DNA of 64,000 nt from an uncultured Collinsella sp. (GCA_902461085.1 CABPWH010000001.1:10520-74519), one strand, 5' to 3'. Shown: positions 5,326 to 53,404, numbered from the stretch's first letter. Program-made: numbers and translations. Notes: a model not told the origin generated them from the letters alone.

Positions 5326-5344
5326 GGATACCTTTCATAGTCAT

Positions 5345-5384
5345 TGGGGACGTTCTTACATGACCAGTCGTTTAAGAACGTCCC
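5345..5384 (-). other. Intercistronic stem-loop between the S-component and ATPase genes
   Basis: ggggacgttctta-N14-taagaacgtcccc forms a perfect 13-bp stem with no U-tract. It lies just upstream of the ecfA RBS. Confidence 0.5.
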
Positions 5385-5432
5385 CAAAAGCTAGTCGTTT
5401 GGGACAGTCTTTGCTGGTGGGGCAGCGATGAG

Positions 5433-6003: not shown

Positions 6004-6078
6004 ATGGTGAAAATCCTTTCGGAAGGGGAGTGCAAGAGAAAAGCGGAGGCGCGTGATGCGAATGCGATCGGGCTCGAG

Positions 6079-6110
6079 ATAGAAAAAAGGCCCCCGGTCG
6101 AAACCGGAGG
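6079..6110 (-). terminator. Intrinsic terminator / attenuator in the leader of the ECF operon
   Basis: Minus-strand RNA: ggccuccgg-uuucga-ccgggggcc (9-bp stem with one G-U pair) followed by uuuuuucu. Confidence 0.7.
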
Positions 6111-6148
6111 CCTTTCAATCACCTAGAGCGCAAAAACAGGCGTGAGGG

Positions 6149-6217
6149 ACTCACTGTCGACCGATCGTATTCGCATCACGCCACCACCAGTTGTTGAGAG
6201 AGTTCATCGTGTTCTTC
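6149..6217 (-). CDS. Leader peptide ORF, 22 aa, MKNTMNSLNNWWWRDANTIGRQ (three consecutive Trp codons)
   Basis: ATG preceded by a perfect RBS aaggag at a 7-nt spacer. The stop codon lies 38 nt upstream of the terminator stem. TGG TGG TGG at 6179-6187. Confidence 0.5.
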
Positions 6218-13616: not shown

Positions 13617-13952
13617 ATGTGTGATTGCATCTTCTGCAAAATTGCCAACCACGAGATCCCCTCGACCGTTGTCTATGAGGACGACCAGGTCATCGCCTTC
13701 GACGACCTCAATCCCCAGGCGCCGGTCCATACGCTCGTGATTCCCAAGAAACACTACAGTGACATCGCCGACAACGTACCGGCCGAGACCATGGGCGCCA
13801 TGGCTCACGCCATCCAGGAGGTCGCTAAGGCCAAGGGCTTGGAGGACGGTTTCCGCGTCATCTCCAACAAGGGCGTCAACGCCGGCCAGACCGTCATGCA
13901 CTTCCACATGCACGTCCTCGGCGGCAAAAACCTGGGCGAGAACCTCATCTGA
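13617..13952 (+). CDS. HIT-family (histidine triad) nucleotide hydrolase
   Basis: 111 aa, CIFCKI N-terminus and the HFHMHVLGG histidine triad. Confidence 0.85.
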   Translation: MCDCIFCKIANHEIPSTVVYEDDQVIAFDDLNPQAPVHTLVIPKKHYSDIADNVPAETMGAMAHAIQEVAKAKGLEDGFRVISNKGVNAGQTVMHFHMHVLGGKNLGENLI

Positions 13953-14099
13953 GGGCGCTTCTTCCTTGCAATGAAACGGAAGCTCAAGCACCGATAACTT
14001 ATATATCAACGCAATAAACCCGAGCGCGAGGGCGTTTGGGTTTATTATTGAAGCGTATGTAACCTGGCGGCGCCACACCGCCTGTTAGTAGGGAGACAC

Positions 14100-15278
14100 A
14101 TGAACGTTCTGGTCGTCAACGCAGGATCTTCGACGCTTAAGTATCAGGTCATCGATACCAAGTCCCACAAGGTGTCCGCAAAGGGCTCCTGCGAGCGCGT
14201 CTGCTTTACCGGCGGTACCTTCACCCACGCTGCCAACGGTTCCAAGAAGGTGACCGAGAACATCGAGTTCCCCGACCACAAGGTCGCCATCGAGGTCGTC
14301 CTGAAGGACCTCGAGGCCAACGGCGTCAAGATCGAGGGCATCGGCCACCGTATCGTTCAGGGCGGTTGGTACTTCGGCGATTCCTCCCTCGTCGACGAGG
14401 ACGTCCTCGCCAAGATCCGCGAGGTCGCTCCGCTCGCCCCGCTGCACAACAACCCCGAGGCCAACGTTATCGAGTACTGCCTGGAGCAGTATCCCGACCT
14501 GCCCAACGTCACGGTCTACGACACTGCTTTCCACTTCAATATGCCCGAGGTCGCCAAGACCTACGCCCTGCCCAAGGACGTCTGCGACAAGCTGCACATC
14601 CGTAAGTACGGCGCCCACGGCACCAGCTACCGTTACATCTCCAAGAAGGTCGCCGAGATGACCAACGGCGAGGCTCGCAAGGTCGTCGTGTGCCATATCG
14701 GCTCCGGTGCTTCCCTGTGCGCCATCGAGGACGGCAAGTGCATGGACACCACCATGGGTCTCACCCCGCTCGACGGCGTCATGATGGGAACTCGCTGCGG
14801 CTCTATCGACCCGGCTACCGTGTGCTACCTGCAGCGCGAGGGTGGCTACACCTTCGACGAGGTCGACGAGATGATGAACAAGAAGTCCGGCCTTTTGGCT
14901 GTGACCGGCGGCAAGACCAACGACTGCCGCAACGTCGAGGAGCTCGCCGCCGCTGGTGACCCCGATGCTCAGCTCGCCTTCGACATGTTTGTCTACAAGA
15001 TTGCCGCTAAGGCAGCCGAGATGGCTACTTCTATGTGCGGTATGGACACCCTGGTCTTTACTGCCGGCATCGGCGAGCACGCTCCGGCTGTCCGCGCTGG
15101 CGTGGCCGACCGTCTGGCCTTTATGGGCGTCAAGATGGATCATGCCCGCAACGCCCTGCGTGGCGACGGCGCTTGGTGCCTGTCTGCCAAGGATTCCAAG
15201 GTCAAGATTTTCGTCATCCCCACGGACGAGGAGTTCATGATCGCCTCCGACGTCGAGCGCATCGTCAACGGCAAGTAA
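14100..15278 (+). CDS. ackA: Acetate/propionate kinase, paralog 1
   Basis: 392 aa, MNVLVVNAGSSTLKYQ..., complete acetokinase signature motifs, RBS gggag. Confidence 0.9.
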   Translation: MNVLVVNAGSSTLKYQVIDTKSHKVSAKGSCERVCFTGGTFTHAANGSKKVTENIEFPDHKVAIEVVLKDLEANGVKIEGIGHRIVQGGWYFGDSSLVDEDVLAKIREVAPLAPLHNNPEANVIEYCLEQYPDLPNVTVYDTAFHFNMPEVAKTYALPKDVCDKLHIRKYGAHGTSYRYISKKVAEMTNGEARKVVVCHIGSGASLCAIEDGKCMDTTMGLTPLDGVMMGTRCGSIDPATVCYLQREGGYTFDEVDEMMNKKSGLLAVTGGKTNDCRNVEELAAAGDPDAQLAFDMFVYKIAAKAAEMATSMCGMDTLVFTAGIGEHAPAVRAGVADRLAFMGVKMDHARNALRGDGAWCLSAKDSKVKIFVIPTDEEFMIASDVERIVNGK

Positions 15279-15442
15279 TTGCAAAAGGGGAGGGGCTGGA
15301 CGACCGAGCGCCGTTCGGCCCCTCTTTTGTGCTCGTTGGGCGATATGCCTGATAGCTATTTATCAAGTTGTGATAACTTCTTATTAAAATGCGGCCGCCT
15401 TAAGGGGTCTGCGTCGACCGTATTGCACTGCAAAGGAGTCTC

Positions 15443-16621
15443 ATGAACGTACTTGTTGTTAACGCCGGCAGCTCAAGCCTCAAATATCAGCTTTTGGATA
15501 CCGATACTCGCGAGGTTTTCGCCAAGGGCAACTGCGAACGTATCGGTTCGGACATGGGCATCTTTGGCCACTCCGAGAACGGTGGCGCCAAGCAGACCGA
15601 GGAGGTCCCCTTCCCGGACCATCGTTCGGCTATCGCGCGTGTGCTCGAGGAGCTCGAGAAGACCGACTTTACGATCGATGGCATCGGCCACCGTATCGTT
15701 CAGGGTGGCTGGCACTTCGATGATTCCGCGGTCGTCGACGACGAGGTCATGGCTAAGATTCTCGAGGTGGCCCCGCTCGCCCCGCTGCACAATTACGGCG
15801 AGGCCGCAGCAATCGAGTATTGCCGCGAGAAGTATCCGGAGCTGCCCAACGTCGCCGTCTTCGATACCTCGTTCCACATGACCATGCCCGAGGTCGCCTA
15901 CACCTACGCGCTGCCCAAGGACGTGTGCGATAAGTACCACGTGCGCAAGTACGGTGCCCACGGCACGAGCCACCGCTATGAGTGGATGATGGCCAAGGAG
16001 ATCCTGGGCTCGCGCTGCCACCGTCTGCTTTCGTGCCATCTGGGCAACGGCGCTTCGCTCGCCGCCATCGAGGACGGCGTGTGCCGCGATACCACGATGG
16101 GCCTCACGCCGCTCGATGGCCTGATGATGGGCACCCGTTGTGGTTCCATCGACCCGGCCACCGTGTGCTACCTGCAGCGCGAGGGCGGCTACAGCTACCA
16201 GGAAGTCGATGACATGATGAACAAGCAGTCTGGTCTGCTTGCCATCTCGGGCATCTCCAACGACGCCCGCGACATCCGCACGCGCGCCTCCGAGGGCGAC
16301 GAGCGCTGCCTGCTCGCCTTCGATATGTTCGCCTATAAGGCCATGCAGCAGGCCGGTTCCATGATCGCTTCCATGGCGGGCGTGGACACCATTACCTTTA
16401 CCGCCGGCATCGGCGAGAACGACTGGTCGATCCGCAAGGCCTTCTGCGACTGCTTTGAGTGGCTGGGCGTGCGCATCGACAACAACAAGAACCGCGAGGC
16501 CGTGGGCAACGGCCCACAGGTCATCAGCGCCGCCGGCTCTTCCGTCACGGTTATGGTCATCCCCACCGACGAGGAATACATGATCGCCCACGACGTCGAG
16601 CGCCTGACCAAGAACAACTAA
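15443..16621 (+). CDS. ackA: Acetate/propionate kinase, paralog 2 (roughly 60-65% identical to paralog 1 by eye)
   Basis: 392 aa, MNVLVVNAGSSSLKYQ..., own RBS aaaggag. An intergenic hairpin and a promoter-like AT-rich stretch separate it from paralog 1. Confidence 0.9.
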   Translation: MNVLVVNAGSSSLKYQLLDTDTREVFAKGNCERIGSDMGIFGHSENGGAKQTEEVPFPDHRSAIARVLEELEKTDFTIDGIGHRIVQGGWHFDDSAVVDDEVMAKILEVAPLAPLHNYGEAAAIEYCREKYPELPNVAVFDTSFHMTMPEVAYTYALPKDVCDKYHVRKYGAHGTSHRYEWMMAKEILGSRCHRLLSCHLGNGASLAAIEDGVCRDTTMGLTPLDGLMMGTRCGSIDPATVCYLQREGGYSYQEVDDMMNKQSGLLAISGISNDARDIRTRASEGDERCLLAFDMFAYKAMQQAGSMIASMAGVDTITFTAGIGENDWSIRKAFCDCFEWLGVRIDNNKNREAVGNGPQVISAAGSSVTVMVIPTDEEYMIAHDVERLTKNN

Positions 16622-16644
16622 CGCGCGCATTTGCAAGTAAACGA

Positions 16645-16680
16645 AAGGCCTCCAGAGCAACAGCTCCGGAGGCCTTTTTA
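16645..16680 (+). terminator. Intrinsic terminator after ackA paralog 2
   Basis: ggcctccagagc-aacagct-ccggaggcc followed by ttttta. Confidence 0.65.
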
Positions 16681-16828
16681 CTAGCAGGTGGAAATTCCAG
16701 TCCCAAAGTGATCGTCACCAGCAACGCCTGCTCTTTCAGCAACGACACCCATTCGTTCAGGATTCTCAGCCCCAGCTCGTAGCCAAGCCGCCGTCCACTC
16801 CAGATACCCTGATTGCCACGTGGCGGCA

Positions 16829-16955
16829 GGGGCCCTACAGGGTAAAGCTCTGAAAACTTTCCGCAGGACGCATGAAACCCCCGCCGCACGAAGTGCGCAG
16901 CGGGGGTTTCATGCATGTCCGAGGACGTTTTCAGAGCTTTACCCTGTAGGGCCCC
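16829..16955. repeat. Giant nested palindrome P1: 29-bp perfect outer arms, 15-bp perfect inner arms and a 5-bp core hairpin
   Basis: ggggccctacagggtaaagctctgaaaac ... gttttcagagctttaccctgtagggcccc; inner gcatgaaacccccgc/gcgggggtttcatgc; core cgcac-gaa-gtgcg. No U-tract on either strand. It lies 15 bp past the pta stop codon. Confidence 0.8.
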
Positions 16956-16970
16956 GAGGGGATAAGTCCG

Positions 16971-17951
16971 CTACTCAGCCATCTGAGCCTGGACGGCGGT
17001 GATGGCCACGACACCCACGATGTCGTCAGCAGAGCAGCCGCGCGACAGATCGTTGACCGGCTTGGCGATGCCCTGCAGGATGGGGCCGTAGGCGTCGGCG
17101 CCGGCGAAGCGCTGGACCAGCTTGTAGCCGATGTTGCCGGCCTCGAGGTCGGGGAACACGAGCACGTTGGCCTTGCCGGCAACGGAGGAGCCGGGAGCCT
17201 TGAGCTGGGCGACGGTGGGGACAATAGCGGCATCGAGCTGCAGGTCGCCGTCGATGGCGAGCTCGGGAGCCTTCTCCTTGCAGAACTTCACAGCCTCCTG
17301 GACCTTCTTGGCGACCTCGCCGCCAGCGGAGCCCATGGTGGAGTAGGAGAGCATGGCCACGTGCGGCTCAACGTTGCCCATGAAGGTGGACCAGGAGTGA
17401 GCGGAGGCGATGGCGATCTCGGAGAGCTCGTCGGAGGACGGGTTGATGTTGAGGCCGCAGTCGGCGAAGATCAGCGTGCCGTCAGTGCCGAACTGCGGGG
17501 TGTCGGTGCACATCACGAAGAAGGCCGAGACCAGCTTGGTGCCCGGGGCGGTCTTGAGGATCTGAAGCGCGGGGCGCAGGGTGTCGGCGGTGGAGTGGCA
17601 GGCGCCGGAGACCAGGCCGTCGGCATCGCCCATCTTGACCATCATGGTGCCAAAGTAGGTGGCGTCCATCACCTGGGCGCGAGCCTGCTCGATGGTAACG
17701 CCCTTCTTGGCGCGGAGCTCGGCAAACTTCTGCGCATACTCCTCGTGCTTCTCGGCATTGCGCGGGTCGATGACGGTAGCGCCGGGAACGTTGATCTCGT
17801 CGGGGTTGCCCAGGATGACGATCTTTGCCAGGCCCTCCTCGATGATTTTGGTGGCCGCGACGATAGTGCGCGGATCCTCGCCCTCGGGCAGGACGATCGT
17901 CTTAAGGTCGGCCTTGGCGGCAGACTTCATACGGTTTAGGAAATCGCTCAT
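16971..17951 (-). CDS. pta: Phosphate acetyltransferase
   Basis: 326 aa, MSDFLNRMKSAAKA..., conserved Pta core, RBS aaggag. Convergent with the ackA pair. Confidence 0.9.
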   Translation of the reverse strand: MSDFLNRMKSAAKADLKTIVLPEGEDPRTIVAATKIIEEGLAKIVILGNPDEINVPGATVIDPRNAEKHEEYAQKFAELRAKKGVTIEQARAQVMDATYFGTMMVKMGDADGLVSGACHSTADTLRPALQILKTAPGTKLVSAFFVMCTDTPQFGTDGTLIFADCGLNINPSSDELSEIAIASAHSWSTFMGNVEPHVAMLSYSTMGSAGGEVAKKVQEAVKFCKEKAPELAIDGDLQLDAAIVPTVAQLKAPGSSVAGKANVLVFPDLEAGNIGYKLVQRFAGADAYGPILQGIAKPVNDLSRGCSADDIVGVVAITAVQAQMAE

Positions 17952-19385: not shown

Positions 19386-20409
19386 AGTCATAACATTCGG
19401 TATTCCCTCGTATAACGCCGCCAAGGACATGGACCATTGCATCACCTCCATCTTGGAGGGGAGCAATTACGCCACCGATATCGAGATTATCGTGGTGGAC
19501 GACGGCTCCAAGGACGAGACGGCCGATAAGGCCGATGAGTGGGAGGCGCGTTATCCCGGTATCATTCGCGCGGTACACCAGGAGAACGGCGGCCACGGTA
19601 TTGCCGTCCTTTCGGGTCTGTGCGAGGCACAGGGCACCTACTACAAGGTTGTTGATTCGGACGACTGGCTTGACGGCGCTGCCCTTTCGACCATGCTGTC
19701 GATTCTGCGTGGCTTTGAGGAGCGCGACCAGCGCGTTGACCTGTTTATCTCGAACTACGTGTACGAGAAGGTTTACGAGGGCACGCATACCGCTATTGGC
19801 TACAAATTTGCCCTGCCGCGCAAGAAGATCTTTTCCTGGGATCAGATCGGTCATTTCCGCCTGGACCAGAACCTACTCATGCACAGCCTGTGCTATCGCA
19901 CGGATGTGCTGCGCGAGTCCAACCTTCCCATGCCGCCGTACACGTTCTATGTGGACAACATCTACGCCTACGTGCCGCTGCCGCGTTGCAAGACCATGTA
20001 CTACGCCGACATCGACCTCTACCGCTACTTTATCGGTCGCGAGGGCCAGAGTGTCAACGAGGCCACGATGGTCAAGCGTCTGGACCAGCAGTTCCGTGTG
20101 ACGCGCATCATGATGGAGTCGTACCACCTGTACAGCGATGTTGAGTCGTCGCGTCTGCGCTCGTACATGATGGGCTATTTCACCATGATGATGGCGATCT
20201 GCTCGGTGCTCACCAAGCTTTCCGAGGAGGATTGCGCCGACGAGCGCCTAAAGACGCTGTGGAATGATTTGAAGGCCTACGACGAGCGCATGTATCGTCG
20301 TGCCCGCTACGGCGTGGTCGGCTTCTTCACTAACCTGCGTGGACGGGCCGGGGACAAAACCACACTCGGCCTATACCGTCTTGCCTCAAAGATCTTCAAA
20401 TTCAACTAG
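19378..20409 (+). CDS. Family 2 glycosyltransferase (probable galactofuranosyl transferase partner of glf)
   Basis: GT2 N-terminal Rossmann domain (ITFGIPSYNAAKDMDHCITSIL, VVDDGSKDET, DSDDW). Overlaps the glf stop by 8 nt. Its last 12 codons lie inside palindrome P2. Confidence 0.8.
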   Translation: MHKVITFGIPSYNAAKDMDHCITSILEGSNYATDIEIIVVDDGSKDETADKADEWEARYPGIIRAVHQENGGHGIAVLSGLCEAQGTYYKVVDSDDWLDGAALSTMLSILRGFEERDQRVDLFISNYVYEKVYEGTHTAIGYKFALPRKKIFSWDQIGHFRLDQNLLMHSLCYRTDVLRESNLPMPPYTFYVDNIYAYVPLPRCKTMYYADIDLYRYFIGREGQSVNEATMVKRLDQQFRVTRIMMESYHLYSDVESSRLRSYMMGYFTMMMAICSVLTKLSEEDCADERLKTLWNDLKAYDERMYRRARYGVVGFFTNLRGRAGDKTTLGLYRLASKIFKFN

Positions 20410-20605
20410 CACAGAAGCGCTCGGGTAACGGGGACCCCTGGTCCTTAACTTGCTACTTCGAACAGTCCTGCGCAAGACGGAGGCGCCACTGGCGCCTCCT
20501 TTGCGTGCGGAACTCGTATCAAGTTAAGGACCAGGGGTCCTCTGCTATGTCTCGCTTTGTGTCAGCAAGCTGAATTTGAAGATCTTGGACGCGCGGTACA
20601 CAGGG
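20365..20605. repeat. Giant nested palindrome P2, about 240 bp with three nested tiers
   Basis: Outer imperfect arms with a 17-bp perfect core aagatcttcaaattca (20385-20401 / 20570-20586). Middle 21-bp perfect arms ggacccctggtccttaacttg (20431-20451 / 20519-20539). Core hairpin ggaggcgcc-act-ggcgcctcc (20478-20498). Confidence 0.8.
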
Positions 20606-20633: not shown

Positions 20634-20758
20634 AGGTTGCCCGGTGGGGCTTGGTTATGTTTGTCGCGAGTTCCGCACGAGCCGAAGAGCACTTAATGTG
20701 CTCTTCGTGCGAGCCAGGACTGTAGAGCAGCAAACATAACCAAGCCCCGCCGGGCAAC
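20634..20758. repeat. Giant nested palindrome P3: 29-bp arms with one mismatch plus inner stems
   Basis: ggttgcccggtggggcttggttatgtttg ... caaacataaccaagccccgccgggcaacc; inner gaagagcac-ttaat-gtgctcttc. Shares the 13-mer cgagttccgcacg with P2 in inverted orientation. Ends 14 bp before the S58 peptidase stop. Confidence 0.8.
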
Positions 20759-20771
20759 CGGACGACCTAGT

Positions 20772-24457: not shown

Positions 24458-24504
24458 AGGGAAAAGCGCCCCGCATCCGAGGCTTTCCTCAAATGCGGGG
24501 CGCT
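24458..24504 (-). terminator. Intrinsic terminator after ppk1
   Basis: agcgccccgcat-N16-atgcggggcgct (12-bp perfect stem) followed by uuuuccc on the minus-strand RNA. Confidence 0.6.
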
Positions 24505-24536
24505 TCTACAACCGCTTCTACAAACTGCTTCTACAA
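24502..24536. repeat. Three tandem direct repeats gcttctacaa (period 12-13) immediately 3' of ppk1
   Basis: gcttctacaacc gcttctacaaact gcttctacaaacg. Confidence 0.7.
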
Positions 24537-30014: not shown

Positions 30015-30439
30015 GATTCCGATGATCTTCGAGGGCCTTATCTAAATTGGCCGAAGATAATCGAAAACGGACCCGTTTCCCTAGTGAAGCGGGTCCGTTT
30101 TTCTATACCGAGAAGTCAAGTTGTTACAAATGGGGCTGTAAAGCGAGCCGGTATCCGCTGGGCCTTATACTGAGTTTCCGGTGAACGGTATCAAGCGTCT
30201 GGTAAACGGTAATTTATTTACCAGAAATGAATAGGACAAACTTTTTTCTGAATAAAAATGAAAATGGTTGAGACACGGTATGAACCGCTAATTCTATTCA
30301 TAGCTTTATTGGAAATATGCAATTTGAGGATGGTTTAACAAAGTTTAGTTCCATTTGATTTTAGGATTGAAAACGCGTTTAAGCACGTAAATACGCTTTA
30401 TTAAGATGAAGTGTGCCATGCGTGAAGTATATGTGTATG

Positions 30440-34984: not shown

Positions 34985-35053
34985 AAGTTGCGGTGGAATA
35001 GTTCCTGTTTGGCCGTCTTGAGGGGTTAAACGGGAACTATTTCACCGCAACTT
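34985..35053. other. Long stem-loop (21-bp arms, one mismatch) in the structured intergenic region
   Basis: aagttgcggtggaatagttcc-N27-ggaactatttcaccgcaactt. Confidence 0.6.
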
Positions 35054-40054: not shown

Positions 40055-40125
40055 GGGACGAGCCCCAGATTGCCACGGCGTGCTTTTGCGCGCGCATGGG
40101 CAATCTGGGGCCCGTCCCATTTTTC
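40055..40125 (+). terminator. Long-stem intrinsic terminator after xerD
   Basis: gggacgagccccagattgcc-N24-ggcaatctggggcccgtccc (20-bp arms, one mismatch) followed by atttttc. Confidence 0.7.
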
Positions 40126-52492: not shown

Positions 52493-53404
52493 ATGGGTCT
52501 GTTTAACGCCGTCATGGCGCTCTCGGGCATGATCGACACGGATGTGATCGAGGACGAGCGCCTTGCGCGTCATACGAGCTATCGTATCGGCGGCAAGGCT
52601 GACCTCTTTGTGACGTGCCATAGCTATCATGCCCTCCGCCGCGCCGTGGCGGTGCTCGATCGCGAGCAGGTGCCGTGGGTCATCATCGGCAAGGGCTCCA
52701 ATCTGCTGGTTGCCGATGGCGGTTATCGCGGTGCCGTCATTTCGCTCGGACGTGAGTTTCAGCGCACGGTTGTTGCCGATGACGGTTGTACGCTGACGGT
52801 CGGTGCGGGCGTGATGTTTGCGCGCCTGGTCAACGATGCCCTGTCGCGTAGCCTCTCGGGCCTTGAGTTTGCCGTTGGCATCCCTGGTTCGGTCGGCGGT
52901 GCGATATCTATGAATGCCGGCACACGGACCGAGTGGATTGGCTCGCTGGTTGAGGATGTCGTAACGTTTGACCCGGCATCCGGTATCAAGCATTATGCGG
53001 GGTCCGAGATCACTTGGGGCTACCGCGAATGTAGCCTTCCCCGCAATGAGATCATCCTCGAGTGCGTGCTCAAGCTTAAACCGGCGCCCAAGGCCGACAT
53101 TCGCGAGCGCATGGAACGGTACCTGACGAGGCGCAAGCGTACACAGCCCATGGGTCGCGCATCCTGCGGGTCGGTCTTTCGCAACCCGCCCGATGCGAGC
53201 GTGGGCAAGCTTATCGAGGATTGTGGATTAAAGGGTTTTTCGATTGGCGGCGCGGAAGTTTCGCCCGTTCACGCTAATTTTATCGTTAATAACGGAACTG
53301 CCTCGGCCGATGACGTTGCCGCGGTTATCAGACATGTGCACGGAAAGGTGAGGGAGGCGTATGGCATCGAGCTCAGACCGGAAGTTAAATTCCTCGGCTT
53401 CTAG
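52493..53404 (+). CDS. murB: UDP-N-acetylenolpyruvoylglucosamine reductase
   Basis: FAD-binding domain and the conserved C-terminal SCGSVFRNP block. Confidence 0.9.
   Translation: MGLFNAVMALSGMIDTDVIEDERLARHTSYRIGGKADLFVTCHSYHALRRAVAVLDREQVPWVIIGKGSNLLVADGGYRGAVISLGREFQRTVVADDGCTLTVGAGVMFARLVNDALSRSLSGLEFAVGIPGSVGGAISMNAGTRTEWIGSLVEDVVTFDPASGIKHYAGSEITWGYRECSLPRNEIILECVLKLKPAPKADIRERMERYLTRRKRTQPMGRASCGSVFRNPPDASVGKLIEDCGLKGFSIGGAEVSPVHANFIVNNGTASADDVAAVIRHVHGKVREAYGIELRPEVKFLGF

Follow-up and report, generated by a model that had tools for sequence, protein, structure and literature searches.

A 127-bp palindrome, here called P1, lies directly past the pta gene in a 64,000-nt stretch of DNA from an uncultured Collinsella sp. 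(GCA_902461085.1, CABPWH010000001.1:10520-74519; hereafter the window, with positions counted from its first letter), and we can say with confidence that it belongs to a lineage-restricted, multi-copy family of palindromic repeats, in which a conserved asymmetric core is enclosed by arms specific to each locus. The family is apparently undescribed so far, in that we found no account of these elements in the searchable literature, which is absence of evidence only. The interpretation we favor, to which we give roughly even weight on the basis of sequence, is that these are repeats akin to the repetitive extragenic palindromic (REP) elements, the bacterial interspersed mosaic elements (BIMEs) and the enterobacterial repetitive intergenic consensus (ERIC) elements, that they would be co-transcribed as hairpins within the 3′ untranslated region (UTR) of the upstream gene, and that their arms would be made symmetric by template switching.

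A three-tier palindrome follows pta

A preliminary description of the window had reported a three-tier palindrome at this position, and we found the same anatomy at 16829-16955: perfect 29-bp outer arms, perfect 15-nt inner arms (16870-16884 and 16900-16914) and a 5-bp hairpin at the apex (CGCAC-GAA-GTGCG). A 12-nt segment separates the tiers on each side, TTTCCGCAGGAC (16858-16869) and ATGTCCGAGGAC (16915-16926); the two resemble each other as direct repeats and can pair only in part. An inverted-repeat match equal to that of the outer arms was absent from shuffled windows, and the minimum free energy of the P1 RNA was −114.1 kcal/mol for the + strand (z −12.3) and −119.2 kcal/mol for the − strand (z −15.0), with 0 of 200 shuffles as stable.

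The pta stop codon, a TAG at 16971-16973 on the − strand, is separated from P1 by 15 nt, and neither sequence inspection nor a terminator scan found a T-run after P1 on either strand, in agreement with what had been described before. The sole call of the scan in the P1 region was a hairpin at 16644-16677 that belongs to ackA2, the second of two tandem acetate kinase paralogues on the + strand that face pta on the − strand, so the earlier claim that this gene has a conventional terminator of its own also holds. Judged as an intrinsic terminator, P1 thus supplies the stable GC-rich hairpin past a gene and lacks the 3′ U/T-tract.

Two mirror-image open reading frames (ORFs) do exist at P1 on opposite strands, as had been noted, and neither has a Pfam match. 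The pta frame itself stays open for 138 codons past its TAG stop (16557-16973, − strand), running through P1 and the tail downstream of it into the antisense of ackA2, and the ORF at 16557..16916 shares this frame; the open frame is probably a high-GC accident. A string resembling a Shine-Dalgarno sequence plus ATG, read by eye in the apical hairpin of the family sequences, was considered for coding potential and rejected because the peptide lengths were inconsistent.

P1 is one member of a multi-copy family

Two sister palindromes, P2 and P3, lie 3.5 kb away in the window; the preliminary description mentioned neither these nor a conserved asymmetric core, nor the ~123-nt tail that ‘empty’ strains lack along with P1 (see below). 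P1, P2 and P3 have internal motifs in common at corresponding positions, TTCCGCA on one side of the inner hairpin and AGGAC on the other, and each begins 12–22 nt past the stop of a gene (pta, a GT2 glycosyltransferase gene and a Peptidase_S58 gene, respectively) to which its orientation is identical. With the core common to P2 and P3 as the search pattern, we scanned sequence collections and obtained matches at no fewer than 120 loci (at least 120) in a species-representative genome collection, with record titles that are nearly all Collinsella or Coriobacteriaceae. The remaining matches were two Eggerthellaceae metagenome-assembled genomes (MAGs), some ‘uncultured bacterium’ records and one Methanobrevibacter MAG contig; this last (L043, CAVHBE010000088.1, binned as Methanobrevibacter smithii) has a typical Collinsella family element at its end and is probably a bin contamination. 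The pattern also matched 2 viral contigs, and records titled C. aerofaciens carry family elements.

We built a covariance model, R1, from 46 family cores with P1 left out. Within the window, R1 scored P3 at 98.9 bits, P2 at 80.1 bits, and P1 at 19.7 bits (E 0.007) on the − strand and 15.5 bits on the + strand, making P1 on the predicted, pta-sense strand the best non-training match in the window. Cores of the P1 type (AACGTCCTCG...GTCCTGCGGAWG) with unrelated arms also occur at loci other than pta, namely 33 nt past the groEL stop, 9 nt past the asd stop and, in another strain, upstream of ftsE. These copies, together with the R1 score, place P1 in a diverged subfamily. The exact P1 sequence has one copy within the window and related copies exist, so that single-copy status, which the preliminary description had named as a reason to give up its reading, does not hold for the family.

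The 64-kb window has 3 copies. A 900-kb record from another strain shows 15 plus 6 BLAST places, and the 272 kb of it covered by a census hold 3 elements; we estimate the family at tens, not hundreds, per genome. Many contigs terminate within the family core, as expected because the core is a repeat. Rfam at gathering thresholds, Collinsella-1 (RF01700; PMC2864571) included, gave no match either in the window or in 18 loci that carry family copies, and permissive Rfam scans of P1 and P2/P3 returned chance-level matches only. A phage collection searched with P1 gave no match, and the only match in a plasmid collection was the 900-kb record, which is chromosomal in nature. Specifically, this record (NZ_OY725717.1 in PLSDB, L253-L258; titled ‘C. 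aerofaciens plasmid 6’; 899,693 bp) carries recA, pnp, rnj, ftsK and many ribosomal protein and tRNA synthetase genes, and looks like a chromosome segment rather than a plasmid.

Locus-specific arms enclose a conserved core

Family elements span 110–150 bp with locus-specific arms of 25–45 bp, and in 116 complete copies the median outer stem is 32 bp (maximum 49) and the median element 132 nt. The core of the main subfamily, which includes P2, is ~85 nt long and asymmetric with sharp edges (TTAAGTTTRTCGCG...AGAGCAGSAAACTTAA), and that of the P1 subfamily reads ..AAC/GTCCTCG-inner hairpin-GTCCTGCGGAWG/TT..., with slashes at the edges. Conservation follows a step function, at 1–2 bits per position within the TTAAGTTTRTCGCG-core-AGAGCAGSAAACTTAA block and at most ~0.6 bits outside it. 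G+C makes up ~76% of the distal arms, and the 5′ arm is enriched in G (GC skew 0.17).

No distal arm is common to two different loci, and in 58 copy pairs the flanks are the same (75–98% identical) and yet the arms are very different; mobility of arm-plus-core units was rejected on the ground that distal arms are never common to different loci. Several marks of ordinary transposition were likewise looked for in the family. Direct repeats at the flanks are distributed as in shuffled controls, giving no target-site duplication; no conserved outer terminal inverted repeats occur outside the core unit, which in the main subfamily ends in 8-bp inverted repeats beginning TTAA/TA; no identical copies were seen at different loci; no parent insertion sequence (IS) with matching ends was identified; and the orthologous loci include no ‘hairpin-only’ empty sites of the kind that would show a core inserting into an older hairpin. 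The earlier suggestion of a repeat resembling REP elements or miniature inverted-repeat transposable elements (MITEs) therefore stands in its REP-like sense, as a multi-copy and lineage-restricted family, and falls in its MITE sense, since target duplications are missing and the outer ends are not conserved. We also compared the family with integron attC sites, which have conserved R/L boxes at the hairpin base and a variable apex, and found the converse, a variable base and a conserved apex.

Changes in the arms are compensated

In the main subfamily, the arms of the unique elements form 2233 Watson-Crick pairs, 22 G·T pairs, 16 A·C pairs and 26 others, and the arms are ~97% Watson-Crick family-wide. 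For P1, we scanned metagenomes with the 3′ end of pta as the key and obtained 120 contigs, from which 41 clean P1 alleles were used. These alleles hold two or more different Watson-Crick pair types at 15 of the 29 arm positions, which confirms the arm covariation at orthologous positions that the preliminary description had proposed to check, and their pair cells comprise 1154 Watson-Crick, 8 G·T, 11 A·C and 16 other combinations. Compensated transversions separate near-identical P1 alleles, for example GGGACCC/GGGTCCC vs GGGTCCC/GGGACCC, and in another case the C·C intermediate carried by L136 has become C-G in L246. In strain locus L009, identity to the window is 99.7% for pta, 60% for P1, 89% for the tail and 95% for ackA2, and the arms are still perfectly complementary.

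In both the main subfamily and the P1 alleles, G·T pairs are about as frequent as A·C pairs, and an attempt to assign the functional strand from wobble pairs failed for this reason. Assignment by folding energy was rejected as well, since the main subfamily gave no difference and the 2.7 kcal/mol by which the P1 alleles favor the sense strand comes from non-independent alleles of one locus. Template switching is documented at E. coli quasipalindromes, and it is a proposed source of perfect stems as well as of their repair and expansion (PMC7202029, PMC8794818, PMC13100816, PMC8604942). Pervasive compensation without an excess of wobble pairs matches the prediction of such hairpin-templated template switching, not that of slow double substitution through G·U, and the arms are probably kept mirror-symmetric in this way. 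The asymmetry of the core persists while the arms symmetrize, which argues for constraint on the core.

P2 lies within a further, imperfect inverted repeat that was conserved in every strain examined. Its left arm holds the last codons and TAG stop of the GT2 gene, and the non-coding right arm looks like an inverted copy of this coding flank, consistent with outward expansion of the palindrome by template switching.

Elements behind gene stops are almost always sense to the gene

On the sense strand of the upstream gene, the elements read ..ACAGUCCUG..hairpin..CGUGCGGAACU.., and this orientation is strongly biased. Where a gene stop lies at most 40 nt away, ORFs of at least 200 aa are on the sense side in 32 cases and the antisense side in 4 (p 1.9e-6), and ORFs of at least 300 aa in 26 cases and 1 (p = 4e-7), with a median distance of 14 nt from stop to element. 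By Pfam, the upstream ORFs are real and unrelated genes, among them gatB, nrdD, valS, a sulfatase, FecCD permeases, DUF711, SDR, tsaD, uvrD and pnp. We considered whether the upstream genes are highly expressed, and with partners that include gatB, nrdD, valS, tsaD, uvrD and permeases this is not a clear rule.

Across a gap of 95 bp P2 and P3 have opposite orientations, each of them sense to its own gene, so that the direction of replication is excluded as the cause. Both are nearly constant, P2 being present in 43/43 and P3 in 42/43 contigs, which were sampled independently of P2/P3. One metagenome contig (L224) carries a GT2-S58 spacer in which the P3 core and right arm are missing and the distal left arm is kept, with a CGG microhomology where the two ends meet. 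Either the hairpin stimulated a deletion from which one arm survived, or the contig shows the state that preceded the palindrome. Inverted pairs recur elsewhere, at several loci with two oppositely oriented matches and between the genes for PNPase and RNase J. In this last spacer (L253 19953-20371; record 52502-52920) two family elements lie inverted between pnp and rnj, two RNA-decay genes, and the second, ~190 nt upstream of rnj, is antisense to both.

The stop codons that precede the elements are TAA in 17 cases, TAG in 15 and TGA in 0, representing ~19 distinct loci, and TGA makes up 20–30% of the stops of long ORFs in the same DNA. This absence of TGA is suggestive rather than conclusive, at roughly p 0.002–0.02.

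The pta locus varies among strains

Across ten strain loci (L001-L010) the spacer between pta and ackA is highly polymorphic, measuring 349 bp in the window, 99 bp in L002, 550 bp where an extra module of ~200 bp occurs, and several kb where IS elements are present. The L002 allele is without P1 and ~123 nt of the downstream tail, and the indel of P1 plus tail (~250 bp) is bordered by the direct repeats GGGAC / GGG(G/A)C. In metagenomes, two deeply diverged classes of pta-locus allele, A/B/D and C, are both common: intact P1 was found in 31 contigs of class A/B/D and 25 of class C, an empty site in 12 (10 of the L002 type, 2 of the L161 type) and an IS3-family element within P1 in 8. A further 23 contigs were scored as ‘other junction’, of which by eye ~16 are intact with one arm-base mismatch (classes not split) and ~5 have a foreign right arm. 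Empty sites thus make up ~12% of roughly 100 informative metagenome contigs, and these sites and the P3 deletion allele of L224 could be either deletions or the ancestral state.

Several alleles are composites. In L142, L048 and L212 the left arm of one pta class is joined to the right arm of another, leaving mismatched arms, and L017, L117 and L121 are equivalent chimeras in the main subfamily; these point to crossovers within the conserved core. The groEL copy has the same inner hairpin as type D at pta, which implies exchange between loci. A foreign right arm is present at the pta locus of L135, L188, L225, L228 and L243, and in a single contig, L213, the interior is inverted between the arms, IS elements included.

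The P1-type core is an insertion hot spot for the IS3-family element. Its end is joined exactly after GTC(C)TG (GTCCTG^CGGAA), which in the window falls between 16863 and 16864, and this junction occurs at pta across six different core contexts, as well as in the groEL copy of L066. The one case sequenced in full is L001, where the IS3-family element has an IS110-family element behind it, with the far end of the latter touching TGCGGAA; the candidate target sequence of the two adjoining elements is GTCCTGCGGAA. REP elements are known as specific targets of IS3- and IS110-family elements (PMC1525189, PMC12288879, PMC3333891).

The extra module of ~200 bp contains internal direct repeats (CCGGAAAGYGTGTCCC) and sits between the P1 tail and the ackA2 terminator. 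It is present in L003, L004 and L006, ~330–545 nt past the pta stop, and also in L001 and L008, with weak partial copies near the family elements of L024, L069, L079, L081, L087 and L104; it may be another small repeat family.

Other features of the window

The features described above are collected in Table 1. The two acetate kinase paralogues (14100-15278 and 15443-16621) both encode 392 aa with a full-length Pfam Acetate_kinase domain, and unlike the usual pta-ackA operon they converge on pta. Beside ackA1 (locus ~13700-16300), a pair consisting of an MFS_1 transporter and a LysR regulator is found in L001-L006 and L010 (fragmented in L005) and not in L007-L009, and judged by gene order the window probably lacks it; L001 also has a Transposase_mut element beside ackA1. 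Long hairpins outside the family lie at 40055-40123, 34985-35053, 6051-6181, 5344-5387, 24464-24505 and 30064-30101. The first has 29-nt arms (40055-40118) followed by a T-run and is a canonical long-stem terminator, and the hairpin at 6051-6181 has 21-nt arms around an ordinary bidirectional terminator hairpin.

Table 1. Coordinates of P1, its parts, its sister elements and adjoining features in the window
Feature	Position	Strand	Description
P1, whole element	16829..16955	- (sense of upstream gene pta)	reads 5'-arm-GUCCUCGGAC..inner hairpin..GUCCUGCGGAAAG-arm'
P1 pta-distal outer arm	16829..16857	.	29 nt, locus-specific
P1 conserved 3' loop motif	16858..16869	-	GTCCTGCGGAAA; motif common to family; contains IS3-family insertion point
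P1 inner hairpin	16870..16914	.	15-bp perfect arms plus apex; allelic types A, B, D
P1 conserved 5' loop motif	16915..16926	-	GTCCTCGGACAT; GTCCTCG in 40/41 alleles
P1 pta-proximal outer arm	16927..16955	.	29 nt, perfect complement of 16829-16857
P1 downstream tail	16700..16828	-	unique to pta locus; lost with P1 in ‘empty’ strains
pta (PTA_PTB family)	16971..17951	-	gene upstream of P1
ackA2 terminator	16644..16682	+	canonical hairpin plus T-run; separate from P1
P2, main-subfamily sister	20432..20540	+	begins 22 nt past TAG stop of GT2 glycosyltransferase gene
P3, sister element	20635..20759	-	begins 12 nt past TAA stop of Peptidase_S58 gene on - strand
Outer imperfect inverted repeat around P2	20383..20592	.	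28-nt arms 20383-20410 and 20565-20592, 86% complementary

Discussion

In the interpretation we favor, an element would be co-transcribed as the start of the 3′ UTR of its upstream gene, where an extremely stable hairpin would block 3′→5′ exonucleases and may also hinder read-through between convergent genes, much as REP/BIME and ERIC elements act in enterobacteria, and the conserved asymmetric core would probably serve as the recognition site of a trans-acting factor. At the DNA level the arms would drift, with hairpin-templated template-switch mutations restoring their mirror symmetry, and recombination between copies and between alleles would homogenize and shuffle the cores. A 3′-UTR hairpin function for P1 itself is the more tentative part of this interpretation, a possibility that we rate somewhat short of probable; the position and orientation of P1 would fit a 3′-end stabilizer or an RNase III site.

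A number of observations weigh against this interpretation. The ~12% of sampled strains without P1 imply that P1 is dispensable at pta. The 68 elements counted as ‘unique’ hold orthologous loci more than once and correspond to ~20–35 distinct loci. The placement has exceptions, in the second element of the pnp-rnj pair, which is antisense and follows no gene end, and in the P1-type copy upstream of ftsE. Wobble pairs are not in excess on either strand and in the main subfamily the two strands, sense and antisense, fold with equal stability, so it is position and orientation only that point to a role at the RNA level, and we infer each of the three steps, transcription of the elements, formation of the hairpin and stabilization of the message.

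The most serious competitor, which we nevertheless consider rather unlikely, is a selfish or neutral repeat without host function that survives where it is harmless, past gene ends, its orientation reflecting an insertion mechanism or asymmetric harm. Such a repeat could well be absent from ~12% of strains, attract IS elements, join in rearrangements (the foreign arms, the inversion and the chimeras), lack an RNA-type wobble signature in its stems and break contigs at its cores in the manner of typical repeats. It would not lead us to expect an orientation bias that is near-absolute, a stop distance this tight, or the presence of P2 and P3 in almost every contig sampled; the core stays asymmetric and conserved despite rapid symmetrization of the arms, which argues for constraint on it, and the target duplications and conserved termini of ordinary transposition are missing.

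At the other extreme, the elements might constitute a new class tied to translation termination or to the mRNA 3′ end, with a core read by a dedicated factor, which we regard as improbable though worth stating. The hairpin would then stand about one ribosome footprint (median 14 nt) behind a UAA or UAG that is readable by release factor 1, as in ~19/19 distinct loci, and the arms would be free to diverge because replication-templated switching re-symmetrizes them. The orientation and stop-codon rules would in that case reflect function, in ribosome release or rescue or in mRNA decay, rather than positions that are merely tolerated.

Two further explanations seem to us less probable again, and about equally so. 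The first is a factor-independent ‘I-shaped’ actinobacterial terminator of pta that acts without a U-tract, perhaps in both directions. Long hairpins without T-runs have been described at gene ends in high-GC Actinobacteria, and P1 is a very stable GC-rich hairpin directly past a gene and between convergent genes. However, mycobacterial RNA polymerase is reported to be U-tract-dependent in vitro, the same genome uses canonical hairpin-plus-T-run terminators (at ackA2, 16644-16682, and at 40055-40123), and a plain terminator requires neither a conserved asymmetric core nor a fixed orientation. TTTT follows the 3′ arm in only 2/68 copies in the sense direction and 1/68 in the antisense direction, and with U-tracts absent across the family, the unusual bidirectional Rho-independent terminator put forward in the preliminary description finds no support.

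The second places the function in the DNA, as a cruciform or core that binds a protein, whether this acts as a polar roadblock to transcription, belongs to the nucleoid or gyrase type known from BIMEs, or is a site-specific recombinase. On the protein-binding cruciform proposed in the preliminary description, the sequence evidence is neutral. Pairing quality is equal on both strands, the core is asymmetric and conserved in sequence, transposases recognize it at single-nucleotide precision, and copies occur in inverted pairs as in BIMEs, all of which would suit such a site. Against it, no candidate protein is encoded beside the copies, whose neighbors are unrelated housekeeping genes, and the tight spacing to the stop codon is more natural for an RNA or translation-linked role. 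An inverton, in which long inverted arms flip the core to alter local expression, is largely excluded: inverted arms of 29–45 bp do flank a short asymmetric segment and the IS-bearing interior of L213 is inverted, but all ~70 or more intact P1 alleles and all sampled P2/P3 alleles share one core orientation, and family-wide the orientation is 26:1.

We assign the window to Collinsella aerofaciens, one of the most widespread Actinobacteria of the human gut. A pta protein identical to that of the window is indexed in ~26,900 blocks of public assemblies, and one of these assemblies is a complete genome of 2.43 Mb, CP048433.1 (GCA_010509075.1), which we take to be that of C. aerofaciens ATCC 25986. 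Tens of large hairpins per genome that lie outside Rfam affect annotation, through spurious ORFs and assembly breaks at the cores, and the elements mark hot spots of strain variation by IS insertion, inversion and recombination. The family offers a natural system in which to watch the maintenance of hairpins by template switching in bacterial populations, and should its orientation and stop-codon rules reflect function, it would give a handle on mRNA 3′-end biology in a poorly studied phylum, for which the natural P1-plus and P1-minus strains are ready-made controls.

In comparing the family with known systems, we find that a conserved apex within locus-specific, mirror-perfect arms is the reverse of the REP and MITE design. 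The small MITEs, such as the Correia/NEMIS (Neisseria miniature insertion sequence), RUP (repeat unit of pneumococcus) and Nezha elements, are likewise non-coding, hairpin-forming intergenic repeats that often lie at gene ends, and the conserved unit of the main subfamily ends, like theirs, in short inverted repeats beginning TTAA/TA; the family differs in having no target-site duplication, no conserved outer termini and no identical copies across loci. I-shaped terminators share the long GC-rich hairpin without a U-tract directly past a gene, and differ from the family in its sequence kinship, conserved asymmetric core, fixed orientation and allelic structure.

The resemblance is greater to the REP elements, BIMEs and REPINs (REP doublets forming hairpins) of Enterobacteriaceae and Pseudomonas. 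These too are extragenic palindromes in many copies that favor the 3′ ends of genes and the spacers of convergent genes, frequently in inverted pairs, without target duplications and confined to lineages. REPs are co-transcribed and act as 3′ mRNA stabilizers. They are however 20–40 nt long with a conserved palindrome, as opposed to 110–150 nt with locus-specific arms and conservation of the apical core only, and they number hundreds of copies per genome vs tens; the strict relation to orientation and stop codon is a further difference. We saw no GTAG/GTGG head in the family, and with respect to the REP-associated tyrosine transposases (RAYTs), the loci examined contained a single IS200/IS605-family tnpA (L254 7884-8342), which has no family copies at its sides. 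ERIC elements, also known as intergenic repeat units (IRUs), are imperfect palindromes of about 127 bp in enterobacteria and thus fall in the size class of the family, P1 being 127 bp. ERICs lie in transcribed intergenic regions, form long hairpins, have no obvious transposase and vary in presence between strains. Their copies are alike over the full length and they belong to another taxon, whereas the arms of the family are unrelated between loci, and we know of no orientation and stop-codon rule described for them. On balance, the closest known kinds are REP/BIME/REPIN and ERIC elements, from which the family is set apart by conservation of the apical core and by its locus-specific arms.

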